Source: a virus. From it: a DNA stretch of 21,881 bases. The translations under genes were made by a program, and so were the position numbers. The stretch covers positions 1 to 21,881 of IMG/VR virus record IMGVR_UViG_3300048929_000179. The stretch is one strand, 5' to 3'. The first letter of the stretch is position 1; the number at the start of each line of letters is the position of its first letter. The notes beneath the pieces are model-generated. The model searched no databases. It saw only the letters and a program-made list of their open reading frames with translations, and was not told the DNA's origin. Of the stretch, positions 4,445 through 6,803 are shown one piece after another.

Positions 4445-4747
4445 ATGAGTATGAAAAATCAGCCATTAGTAGATGAATTAATTGAATTAGGAATTTATGA
4501 TGTTGTCGATTATGACAACGAATACGAGCAAAATCAAGAGTTTATGACTACCACTGATTCAAATAACAAAATCAGGAAAGTCGAAGATAATAAAATATCA
4601 GACGAAGAAATTAAACTTCTTTTGTCTGCTAAACAAACCAGATATTTAAAAAGAATAGCCTCTATGGTCACAATTCTTGCAGTGGTGACAATATTAGGAG
4701 CGTGTTATTGGGCGTATATGTATTTCAAGATTAAATCGATGTTTTAA
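4445..4747 (+). CDS. Membrane-anchored hypothetical protein (moron)
   Basis: GGAGG RBS; acidic N-terminus; one C-terminal hydrophobic helix (IASMVTILAVVTILGACYWAYMYF); own promoter and terminator; opposite strand to the rest of the window. Confidence 0.8.
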   Translation: MSMKNQPLVDELIELGIYDVVDYDNEYEQNQEFMTTTDSNNKIRKVEDNKISDEEIKLLLSAKQTRYLKRIASMVTILAVVTILGACYWAYMYFKIKSMF

Positions 4748-4750
4748 TGC

Positions 4751-4785
4751 AAAAAGAGCCAGTCTACTTAACGTAGGTGGCTCTT
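4751..4785. terminator. Probably bidirectional intrinsic terminator
   Basis: Minus strand AAGAGCCA-CCTAC-GTTAA-GTAG-AC-TGGCTCTT-TTT, located between convergent transcripts. Confidence 0.75.
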
Positions 4786-4932
4786 GTGTTTCATTGCTAA
4801 GCGTCAATATATTGTAAAAGCACCCAATTTCTTGAGTGCTTTTACGGACCAGTGAACACAGACATAAACTGGTCGAGATAAGTTTATGCGGTTCAATAAA
4901 ATAATACGTCCATTGAAGCATCTTGCTTCGTT
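4751..4932 (-). ncRNA. Putative ~180-nt structured ncRNA downstream of the PemK-like gene
   Basis: Perfect promoter upstream. Hairpin GAAGCA/TGCTTC (4915-4929); nested stem GGAC/GTCC, TGAAC/GTTCA, CATAAACT/AGTTTATG (4846-4911); 14-bp stem with GAAA tetraloop (4814-4845); terminator. Confidence 0.72.
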
Positions 4933-4938
4933 GAATGT

Positions 4939-4967
4939 ATTATATCTTAAATATATGCCTTTGTCAA
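4939..4967 (-). promoter_or_regulatory. Consensus sigmaA promoter for the ncRNA
   Basis: TTGACA (4967-4962), 17 bp spacer, TATAAT (4944-4939); begins 5 bp after the PemK-like stop codon. Confidence 0.88.
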
Positions 4968-4972
4968 CACTT

Positions 4973-5752
4973 TTATTCACTTTCTTTGTTTTGCTGACAG
5001 CTTAATTGTAATTCTAATTCTTTAACCTTGCTTTTTAAATCTTTTATAATTGTATCTTTATCATTAAGTCTTTCTTTTAATTTTACATTGTTCTTAATTT
5101 CATTTGAGTAGTTGACGTTTATCGTAGGAAAGCAAACCGAGAATAATTGATTTTGTATTGAATGTAAAACTTCTGTATCCTCAATTTTAACATCCAATTC
5201 AGAAATCCTTCCAGCAGATAAAAATTTAGCATCATTAATCATTAGTACGCAATCTTTTGAAAACCCCTCTTTCTCATATGCCGTCCTATTCTTTTTTGAT
5301 TTATTAGGATTTTTTGTAGGATGATAGCAATCATAAACCCACCCGGCGCCAGAAGTTATTGGTATAAATAATATTTTTCCTTCTTTTTTACTAATGCACA
5401 ACCCGTAATGATAATATGCTAATTCACCATTATATGCTTTCCCATAATCTAAATAACAGACTTGACCAATATCTATTTTTACCTCTTTTTTATCCTTATT
5501 AAGATATTTGGTAAACGAGTATTTTTGAAGCCAAGTTGAGTCACTTTTAATTATTGAAGCAGACTCGTAGGCATTAAGTTGTTTTATTCCTTTAATATAA
5601 TTGCCTACAAATTGTATCGCACCTAATAAAATTTCAGGAGCAATTTTACTTCTCGTGCCTTTGTTTTTTGCACAATTTTTCGTGTAGCAAGAAATATCCT
5701 TTATATCACCCCAATGCATCGAGGTTGTATCAATTTTTTCATTAACACTCAT
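4973..5752 (-). CDS. PemK/MazF-fold endoribonuclease-like protein with N-terminal extension and C-terminal coiled coil
   Basis: GQVCYLDYGKAYNGELAYYHYGLCI...ILFIPITS and CVLMINDAKFLSAGRI match the PemK pattern G.I..vDfG...GsE....hpa.v...vP.TS / s......i..isk.Ri. Confidence 0.72.
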   Translation of the reverse strand: MSVNEKIDTTSMHWGDIKDISCYTKNCAKNKGTRSKIAPEILLGAIQFVGNYIKGIKQLNAYESASIIKSDSTWLQKYSFTKYLNKDKKEVKIDIGQVCYLDYGKAYNGELAYYHYGLCISKKEGKILFIPITSGAGWVYDCYHPTKNPNKSKKNRTAYEKEGFSKDCVLMINDAKFLSAGRISELDVKIEDTEVLHSIQNQLFSVCFPTINVNYSNEIKNNVKLKERLNDKDTIIKDLKSKVKELELQLSCQQNKESE

Positions 5753-5850
5753 ACTCCCATTCCCCTATCATAAGTAATCTCTATATAATTATATACCATA
5801 ATTTTCCATATTTCTACAGGAACGTAGGTTCTTATGATAGGAGAGTATGA
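5749..5850. repeat. Inverted repeat covering the RBS and ATG of the PemK-like gene
   Basis: TCATACTC-ccattcc-CCTATCATAAG (5749-5774) versus CTTATGATAGG-a-GAGTATGA (5831-5850): 11 + 8 complementary bases. Confidence 0.8.
5788..5831 (-). promoter_or_regulatory. Putative promoter of the PemK-like gene with adjacent LexA-type (SOS) box
   Basis: TAGAAA (5816-5811)-17-TATAAT (5793-5788); GAAC-GTAG-GTTC at 5820-5831 matches the Firmicute GAAC-N4-GTTC box. Confidence 0.55.
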
Positions 5851-5863
5851 CTAACAAAAACGT

Positions 5864-6001
5864 TTAAAAGATTTTACCAATTATTTGGCACAAGTAATCT
5901 ATTTCTTCTTTAATCTCTTTGCATTTCCTTTCCCTCTGAGTATCCTTTTCCATTTTATCCATTTTTTCATTAAGATCTATCATTTCTTGCTTAATTGACA
6001 T
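5864..6001 (-). CDS. Small charged helical protein, 45 aa (below ORF-track cutoff)
   Basis: AAAGGAG RBS then MSIKQEMIDLNEKMDKMEKDTQRERKCKEIKEEIDYLCQIIGKIF*. Confidence 0.6.
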   Translation of the reverse strand: MSIKQEMIDLNEKMDKMEKDTQRERKCKEIKEEIDYLCQIIGKIF

Positions 6002-6023
6002 ATTAACTCCTTTCAATTTACAA

Positions 6024-6053
6024 TAAAAGAGAGTAGAACTTAATCTACTCTCT
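6024..6053 (-). terminator. Intrinsic terminator
   Basis: Minus strand AGAGAGTAGA-TTAAGT-TCTACTCTCT-TTTATT directly after the 247-aa gene. Confidence 0.75.
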
Positions 6054-6059
6054 AAATAA

Positions 6060-6803
6060 TTATGGTCTTACGAAATTAGCAGAACAGCCAATTATTTGAA
6101 TATACTGTCCATCTCTAACCGTAACCTCTCTTGGTGTTTTAAAAACAAATATTCTCTGTTCCATATTGTGGCCTTGGGTAGATTCATCTTTACTTGACGG
6201 AATAGAATTAAAAACTCTGCACTCCGCTCTGGTGTTGTTGGGGTCTATTCGGGTTATAGTATAATCACCTGCTTTAATATCTTTGCCAACTAAAAATACC
6301 CCTTCTTTACTAATATCCAGTTGTTCTGCTTCCGTCACTGGGACATATACTCCTGGATTCACATCATCTCCTTTGTGGAGTTTAATGTAATTAAAATTAC
6401 TCATATCACTGTAAGAACCTTTAATGATTATATCGTTAGCGAGAACCTCTGGGTAGAATACATATTCTCCAGCGGGAATATTACCGCTGTCAACCCATTT
6501 TCCAGACGTGTCAAACGTATATTTTTTATTTGATGTTGATACGGTTGTATCGTTTGATTGCACCCATTCGCCAGATTCGTTTACAAGATATCCATCGGGA
6601 GTAGTTGTATTGCTTAACATATATCCTCCTTCATTAAAATAGTACCACTTGCCGTTTACTTCTTTCCATGATTTTTTTACGTATGAACCATTATCATTCT
6701 GATACCACCATCCAACATCATCCTGTTTCCATTCACTCGCAAAAGAGGTTATGCAAAGTGCTGTTGAAAATGCTAACACCAAGGCTAATATTTTTTTCAT
6801 CAT
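6060..6803 (-). CDS. Secreted cell-wall-binding-repeat protein (moron)
   Basis: Signal peptide MKKILALVLAFSTALCITSFA; WKQDDVGWWYQNDNGSY / WKEVNGKWYYFNEGGYM / TTPDGYLVNESGEW repeats; C-terminal domain with G.DI.AG.Y motifs. Confidence 0.88.
   Translation of the reverse strand: MMKKILALVLAFSTALCITSFASEWKQDDVGWWYQNDNGSYVKKSWKEVNGKWYYFNEGGYMLSNTTTPDGYLVNESGEWVQSNDTTVSTSNKKYTFDTSGKWVDSGNIPAGEYVFYPEVLANDIIIKGSYSDMSNFNYIKLHKGDDVNPGVYVPVTEAEQLDISKEGVFLVGKDIKAGDYTITRIDPNNTRAECRVFNSIPSSKDESTQGHNMEQRIFVFKTPREVTVRDGQYIQIIGCSANFVRP

Follow-up and report, generated by a model that had tools for sequence, protein, structure and literature searches.

The window analysed here is a 21,881-nucleotide (nt) stretch of viral DNA, the first 21.9 kb of the 120-kb IMG/VR virus record IMGVR_UViG_3300048929_000179. 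On its minus strand it carries a gene for a protein of 259 amino acids (aa) with a predicted, enlarged MazF/PemK fold (4973-5752; supported as an open reading frame (ORF), by homologues and by an AlphaFold2 model), called the toxin gene below, and directly downstream of it a promoter and a small structured RNA. As far as sequence comparison can tell, this RNA is a structured gene of its own, non-coding and with a separate promoter, and it accompanies the toxin gene in essentially all close homologues. We favour, with a probability of roughly 55%, the reading that the pair forms a type III-like toxin/RNA-antitoxin module in which the gene order is inverted and the RNA has its own promoter.

The small RNA and its link to the toxin gene

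The stop codon of the toxin gene ends at 4973 and, after five bases, the minus strand holds TTGACA (4967-4962), a 17-nt spacer and TATAAT (4944-4939), which makes a 12/12 match to the consensus promoter over 4967-4939, exactly as an earlier reading of the letters by a model (the first-pass annotation) had described it. The start of the small RNA was placed from this -10 box, and both of its ends are predicted. The 183 nt at 4932-4750 on the minus strand fold at -57.2 kcal/mol, against -34.7 +/- 3.8 kcal/mol for shuffled sequences (z = -5.96), and none of 200 shuffles equalled this value. A short form of ~117 nt would run to a first terminator (4816-4932, minus strand), as indicated by a covariance-model match and by fold energy, and the long form extends to about 4751, for a length of ~180 nt. 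A covariance-model search found the small RNA as a single copy in the phage record.

Homologous loci were gathered from species genomes, IMG/VR and metagenomes, which gave 42 loci with close homologues, including the window, and 27 distinct downstream sequences. Measured from the end of the stop codon, a promoter with a consensus match of 10/12 or better begins between -22 and +17 nt in 22 of these 27; 16 are 12/12 matches, and in L006 a 12/12 promoter lies 80 nt further on. All promoter-bearing loci continue into a non-coding stretch of 120-300 nt with an intrinsic terminator at its end, so that the linkage of the RNA to homologues of the gene, on which the first-pass annotation had staked its reading, holds up. 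The same linkage is seen from the side of the RNA. The sequence pattern of its second stem, P2, matched 7 IMG/VR contigs and the toxin gene adjoins in 7/7, while a search of 151 Lachnospiraceae genomes with the RNA model gave one true match, again with the toxin gene adjoining. A second, weak match to the model (G114), which stood apart from the gene, was dismissed because it falls within a coding region.

No intact close homologue without the RNA was present among the loci collected. The only locus that lacks the RNA is L037. Its toxin ORF (L037:597-2363) is also missing the coiled coil of the other proteins and continues instead, in the same frame, for ~350 codons unrelated to the toxin; with its contig at 2.3x coverage, it is probably an assembly chimera or a decayed copy. 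The reverse situation, a toxin gene frameshifted near codon 80 beside an intact RNA identical to that of L021, occurs at L028-L030, L049 and L052, the first three of which represent one phage lineage.

The RNAs of these loci were sorted into class A (the window and its nearest relative L019, two RNAs only), class B, class C and classes D to G. Class B was examined in a structure-blind MAFFT alignment (A2) of 12 distinct RNAs, in which 33 pairs form three helices and 97.2% of cells are paired. Twelve pairs are changed on both sides, against 5.4 +/- 1.5 in shuffled alignments, and 0 of 500 shuffles reached 12; when the partners were slid by 1-3 columns as a control, pairing fell to 35-47%. A covariance model (R1) built from class B RNAs only, with the window RNA and L019 outside the training set, matches the window RNA at 4818-4933 on the minus strand with 46.2 bits (E 5e-9, a rough value, as the calibration of the RNA models was shortened) and L019 with 48.4 bits. 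Joint alignment with class A raises the number of compensatory pairs to 16. The proposal that aligned downstream regions should covary is therefore borne out, with 12-16 compensatory pairs and no shuffle in 500 reaching that level, and the conserved G-U pairs place the RNA on the same strand as the toxin gene. Class A appears as a shortened class B, with the base of the first stem (P1), the linker, P2 and the loop UUAUNUCGACC in common. Class C has its own P1, three-tier P2 and terminator, again with compensatory changes, and carries an invariant CACGGA after both stems. Classes D-G (L023, L026, L045, L046, L050) are otherwise unrelated in sequence; in the final ~60 nt ahead of the terminator they share a small hairpin, AAAAAC-GGUUR-AGUUUUU, which directly adjoins it.

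Four elements had been described after the window promoter, and all of them are present on the minus strand. The first is the P1 hairpin GAAGCA-AGA-UGCUUC (module 1, 4915-4929), which corresponds in the alignment to the base of the class B P1 and whose pairs covary across classes. It is followed by a single-stranded linker, AAUGGAC GUAUUAUUUUAUU (4895-4914), which is unpaired in the consensus folds and has the motif GUAUUAU in common with class C. The P2 three-tier stem with its conserved loop UUAUCUCGACC comes next (module 2, 4854-4894); its 14 pairs are formed in 99.5-100% of cells, with compensatory change in 5-7 of them. A 14-bp GAAA-capped stem with UUUU behind it lies at 4814-4845, with compensatory changes in L019, and the last element is a hairpin with a U-run at 4751-4784, a second, bidirectional terminator shared with a convergent 100-aa ORF. 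The GAAA-capped stem had been counted as a unit equal to the others, and this is the part of the description that we revise: because class B and other relatives have a terminator at this position and UUUU comes next, it is probably terminator 1, which would give the short RNA of ~117 nt.

The two remaining stems resemble one another in outline. Module 1 reads GAAGCA...UGCUUC and then AAUGGAC, module 2 reads GAACCG...GUGUUC and then ACUGGUC, so that in both GAA opens the stem, UUC closes it and an unpaired A-N-UGG is next. On these motifs, and because distant relatives of the protein carry two tandem hairpins at the same place (see below), we interpret the window RNA as a pair of hairpin modules that have diverged from one another, followed by one terminator or two.

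The first-pass annotation had noted that the RNA stretch is without a ribosome-binding site (RBS), and neither an RBS nor a conserved ORF was found there. One 75-aa ORF begins within the loop of P1; it is without an RBS, shrinks to 29 aa in L019 and has no counterpart elsewhere. This bears on the idea that a small protein, rather than the RNA, is the rescue factor, be it the product of a 45/50-aa ORF upstream of the toxin gene (5864-6016, minus strand) or a peptide from the RNA region. The 45-aa ORF does have a good Shine-Dalgarno sequence and the 75-aa ORF does overlap the RNA. However, the upstream ORFs differ in every locus, the 75-aa frame is not kept and the substitution pattern of the region is that of a paired RNA, and among the explanations weighed here we regard this as the least probable.

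Rfam scans (4227 models) of the whole window at the gathering score and of 4600-5100 at E <= 10 returned nothing relevant, and the same was true of eight representative loci at E <= 0.1. The pemK motif and the type III antitoxin models, which the first-pass annotation had singled out as a check, therefore have no match in the window or in these loci, and the RNA family is absent from Rfam.

Exchange between near-identical phages gives a further view of the link between gene and RNA. L024 (class C) and L020 (class B) have flanks that are 96-98% identical, with toxin and RNA replaced: identity ends ~290 nt before the toxin start and returns at the RNA terminator, and the toxin-plus-RNA stretch in between is without nucleotide similarity. 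On this comparison, the two are exchanged together as one cassette. RNA classes also track protein clades in a maximum-likelihood tree, with support of 100/100 for class C and 96/90 for classes D-G.

The protein and its wider superfamily

The toxin gene had been described as an AT-rich gene of 259 aa, and the ORF at 4973-5752 agrees with this; its block has 30% GC, the most AT-rich of the first 12 kb, compared with 35-39% in the structural genes. The protein has 33 homologues at 42-55% identity, none of which carries a precomputed Pfam domain. An AlphaFold2 model made with 32 homologues (predicted local distance difference test, pLDDT, of 74.7) divides it into three parts, with helices at 15-77, a beta-barrel at 91-211 and a single long helix at 209-257.

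The barrel (5120-5482, minus strand) is the part that suggests a function. Foldseek comparison with the PDB ranks MoxT, MazF and YdcE at the top (E 6e-6 to 1e-4; template-modelling scores by target of 0.70-0.74), and VIA-align, which is independent of Foldseek, superposes it on Staphylococcus aureus MazF with Z 9.4 and a root-mean-square deviation of 2.9 over 109/115 residues. Z is 8.3 for Kid, 7.3 for the type III toxin CptN and 7.0 for CcdB. On the predicted structure, residues 91-211 have the MazF/Kid fold. Residues H115, T133/S134, H144, R156, E162, D174, K176 and R182 are invariant in the barrel; H115, T133 and S134 fall within the motifs expected of MazF, their equivalence to the active site being our own reading of those motifs.

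A PemK-like core had been noticed at first pass together with the suggestion of a fold check, and that check returned a MazF/Kid barrel (Foldseek E 6e-6, VIA-align Z 9.4). The core thus stands at the level of fold, also through the names of its ESM Atlas neighbours, which are labelled PemK family and carry PF02452 on 16-93% of members, but Pfam is blind to the window protein itself. Pfam, PHROGs and PADLOC scans of the 259-aa protein gave no significant family, PF02452 (PemK_toxin) staying below its curated threshold, and only 2/32 family members match PF02452, weakly (best E 5e-4).

The barrel is flanked by two further domains. The N-terminal helical domain (aa 1-88; 5489-5752, minus strand), which contains the helices at 15-77, is conserved across the superfamily, can be aligned in both the close and the distant family alignments (A1/A5) and has N30, Q47, N51, S66 and W74 invariant; a fold search with this domain folded alone gave generic helical matches only (Z <= 5.7). 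The C-terminal segment (aa 209-257; 4982-5128, minus strand) is predicted as one long helix with pLDDT 85-93 and has coiled-coil matches.

MazF and PemK are textbook protein-neutralised (type II) toxins. Family scans and a comparison of 18 loci found no MazE, AbrB or ribbon-helix-helix antitoxin gene overlapping the toxin gene or conserved beside it, which agrees with the first-pass annotation. Upstream neighbours vary from locus to locus in the same 18 loci, with no conserved small ORF or protein partner. One locus, L021, has a 61-aa ORF (L021:3670-3855, minus strand) that looks Phd/YefM-like by eye and is divergent from the toxin gene; it is absent from other loci.

An all-against-all protein search extended the family to 163 relatives. 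Between a profile of 22 distant relatives and the close family, hhalign aligns 228 columns with a probability of 100% (E 3e-51), and the three-domain plan is the same. Four genomes with distant relatives have a promoter over the stop codon, then two similar hairpins and a terminator. In three of them the hairpin copies were recognised as direct repeats, which again follow the toxin gene (L081, 2 x 33 nt; L084, 2 x 18 nt; L085, 2 x 13 nt). These RNAs are unrelated in sequence, yet position, promoter and two-hairpin plan are kept. As a separate observation, a chromosomal Lachnospiraceae subfamily (L063-L070) carries the motif YEHRGLVIGV and has the coiled coil; it was found in 8/401 genomes, with internal stops in two copies. 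In tblastn searches, neither GenBank phages nor PLSDB plasmids gave a match to the 259-aa protein or to two distant relatives, and a related-locus search of IMG/VR with distant relatives found nothing. The clade is so far confined to sequences from uncultured gut samples and a small number of Lachnospiraceae genomes.

The distant relatives weigh on the possibility that the RNA is an independent phage regulatory small RNA, or a strongly transcribed structured 3' element, and the protein a non-toxic moron with a MazF fold. The existence of RNA-less relatives in conserved chromosomal contexts shows that non-toxin roles are possible for the fold. Nevertheless, the RNA was never seen without the gene in the collections searched, the boundaries of the exchanged cassette enclose exactly gene and RNA, and position, promoter and two-hairpin layout recur with the unrelated RNAs of distant relatives, which speaks for a function tied to the protein and not to a particular phage. 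We consider this explanation unlikely.

Mechanism and comparison with known systems

In the type III-like module that we favour, the coiled coil would hold two barrels together, and the RNA would be made by two routes. Because no terminator stands between the stop codon and the RNA, each toxin mRNA would carry a copy of the RNA at its 3' end, and the consensus promoter of sigma-70 type in front of the RNA would supply it in large excess. The two RNA modules may then bind both RNA-binding grooves of the toxin dimer and block it, as ToxI does with ToxN and RCd22 with AbiF; two hairpins in the RNA, and a dimerising coiled coil in the protein, point to a stoichiometry of one RNA per toxin dimer. 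An RNA that turns over faster than the protein would leave the toxin free once transcription stops, either because a superinfecting phage shuts it off or because the prophage is lost, and the freed toxin would halt the cell, with abortive infection or prophage retention as the outcome. We infer toxicity, RNase activity, direct binding of RNA to protein and the transcription-shut-off trigger by analogy with ToxIN.

An RNA beside a toxin gene could also act in a type I-like manner, by base-pairing with the toxin mRNA and thereby blocking translation or triggering decay. Small RNAs beside toxin genes commonly work in this way, and the long unpaired linkers of the RNA would suit such a role, but the RNA is encoded on the toxin strand and so is not cis-antisense. 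At five loci the best duplexes that it forms with the 5' region of the toxin mRNA do not surpass those of shuffled RNA (z -1.7 to +0.3), the longest perfect complement at nine loci is 8-11 nt, which is the chance level, and falls at non-conserved positions, and the RNA is without an anti-RBS (CUCC) motif. This mode of action is thus very improbable. Since the antisense mode is without support, direct neutralisation of the protein by the RNA would be the economical reading that remains, by analogy with the systems just named.

RNA and protein could instead act together as a functional ribonucleoprotein, with the RNA serving not as an inhibitor but as a cofactor, scaffold, sensor or decoy; examples would be a bait for the nuclease or RNA-binding protein of an invading phage, or a specificity element for a nuclease. 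Linkage, cassette exchange and covariation fit this equally well, the conserved N-terminal domain is without an assigned function, and diversification of RNA classes with protein clades is expected for any specific RNA-protein pair. Against it, a perfect consensus promoter and a large excess of RNA are the classic signature of an antitoxin, the fold is of toxin type with no other inhibitor at hand, and frameshifted toxins retain their RNA, of which the reverse case was not seen. We hold the ribonucleoprotein to be unlikely, though it is the alternative that we take most seriously.

Several observations weigh against an RNA-antitoxin module. Searches of PDB sequences, by profile and with single domains, gave only coiled-coil or chance matches and no significant match to a solved MazF. 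Without such an alignment the catalytic residues cannot be aligned, and in our motif reading the position of the usual MazF Arg appears to be occupied by Tyr/His beside an invariant His. A repeat search reports no direct repeat in the window RNA, whose modules share short flanking motifs only. Relatives without the RNA also exist, so that the fold family is not necessarily toxic. A group of ~190-aa Erysipelotrichaceae relatives (L009-L018, e.g. L012:3890-4453) is without RNA and coiled coil and is found mostly directly upstream of a PP-loop gene resembling tilS (SGGxDS motif), which suggests that this branch of the fold family has a conserved function in the chromosome, perhaps a housekeeping one. 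The chromosomal L063-L070 subfamily likewise has no downstream promoter or RNA. Finally, co-inheritance and the agreement of RNA classes with protein clades are to be expected of any adjacent genes and are no proof of interaction.

The RNA-antitoxin interpretation of the first-pass annotation is supported in part, namely in the MazF/Kid fold, the missing protein partner, the linked and separately promoted RNA and the phage setting, but its description of the RNA as a single-copy series of four elements is revised. In a broader form, there would be a large and so far undescribed class of long-form MazF-like toxins (helical N-terminal domain, barrel and coiled coil) controlled by a separately and strongly transcribed downstream two-hairpin RNA, with one module per dimer subunit, and toxins and RNAs of matching specificity would be exchanged together at phage hot spots. 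Such a class would mirror the type III layout while using the classic type II toxin fold. We are evenly divided over this generalisation.

Among known systems, the type III pairs ToxIN/AbiQ, CptIN and TenpIN (PMC3401426, PMC5086642) are alike in many respects. In ToxIN and CptIN the RNA directly neutralises the toxin protein (PMC5086642). Here as there, the toxin has a barrel related to Kid/MazF (Z 7.3 between the window barrel and CptN), a dedicated RNA, small, structured and made of repeated modules, stands in for a protein antitoxin, the setting is a mobile element or phage, and an excess of labile RNA over stable toxin is expected. Type III toxins also process the precursor of their antitoxin into units. 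The differences concern layout above all. The RNA is downstream of the toxin gene here and upstream there; it has its own consensus promoter here, whereas RNA and toxin share a promoter there, with an attenuating terminator before the toxin. Window terminators come after the RNA, and none is found between the toxin stop and the RNA. An array of identical 34-45-nt repeats in the type III systems corresponds to two diverged hairpin modules in the window, the window toxin is nearer to true MazF than to ToxN/CptN and has extra N- and C-terminal domains, and no Rfam type III antitoxin model matches the window RNA. The first-pass annotation had drawn the contrast with type III on order, promoter and repeats; the downstream order and the separate promoter remain, but the contrast in repeats is smaller than had been thought, as distant relatives have two tandem hairpins.

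A parallel in RNA architecture is RCd22 of the AbiF system in the phi027 prophage of Clostridioides difficile, a two-hairpin RNA antitoxin (PMC12373285). It consists of two stem-loop motifs and a terminator, is left uncut between the motifs, tolerates compensatory stem mutations, and acts in cis and in trans via binding of the toxin protein (PMC12373285). A prophage location, a clostridial host and a two-hairpin RNA with terminator are common to both systems. However, the toxin of that system is of the Abi_2/AbiD/F type, related to Cas13 ancestors and not MazF-fold, and RCd22 is transcribed from a shared promoter as the leader at the 5' end of the toxin mRNA. Pfam gave no Abi_2 match on the window protein, and the abiF motif (RF03085) had no match in the Rfam scans.

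The type II systems MazEF and PemIK (Kis-Kid) have the core fold of the toxin in common with the window but differ in that no MazE/PemI-type gene is present here, the toxin is twice the usual length and PemK_toxin stays below threshold. The pemK RNA motif is also a structured RNA beside a PemK-like gene, but neither it nor any other toxin-associated motif of Rfam has a match here. From type I systems the module differs in its chance-level complementarity and in its 259-aa soluble-type protein, which is not a small hydrophobic toxin. Searches of the literature turned up no account of a MazF-fold toxin whose RNA partner lies downstream under a promoter of its own.

Setting of the module and wider meaning

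In the window, tail and tape-measure genes lie upstream of the toxin/RNA locus and an antirepressor downstream. As part of our best explanation, and with the same modest preference as the module itself, the cassette would occupy a variable region of a large temperate Lachnospiraceae phage. Relatives of the module sit in phage or defence-type hot spots, and several of their neighbours are of the defence-island type (GmrSD_N, Hypoth_Ymh, NYN). The GmrSD_N site behaves as a hot spot at which different toxin/RNA classes are exchanged. In three phage loci the cassette is immediately preceded by a gene with the GmrSD_N (DUF262) domain (L020:2895-3872, L021:2704-3645 and L024:2709-3638).

The toxin gene has a candidate promoter of its own, TAGAAA-17-TATAAT (10/12; 5788-5816, minus strand), which comes from a consensus scan only and is much weaker than that of the RNA. 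The upstream 45/50-aa ORF, whose 45-aa form starts with ATG at 6001, has no conserved counterpart in related loci. Its 45-aa product is highly charged and is preceded by a strong Shine-Dalgarno sequence (AAAGGAG), and the ORF lies between an upstream terminator (6028-6053, minus strand) and the toxin promoter. On the other side of the RNA, the convergent 100-aa ORF (4445-4747, plus strand), which uses the last terminator in common with it, has no family match in Pfam, PHROGs or PADLOC and has a hydrophobic helix at its C-terminal end. No tandem repeats were found upstream of the toxin gene, 4600-6200 having been searched without finding a tandem array, and a scan for tRNA and tmRNA genes found none.

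If a branch of MazF-type toxins is indeed under the control of RNA, the boundary between type II and type III systems would blur, and a partner would be supplied for many MazF-like genes that carry an orphan annotation at present. The layout itself would represent a new regulatory design, as it would provide at least one antidote per toxin message. The RNA family could be added to Rfam, and the matched toxin/RNA classes swapped among near-identical gut phages would offer a ready set for the study of RNA-protein specificity. Classes that are exchanged in this way may also bear on the competition between phages in the human gut microbiome.

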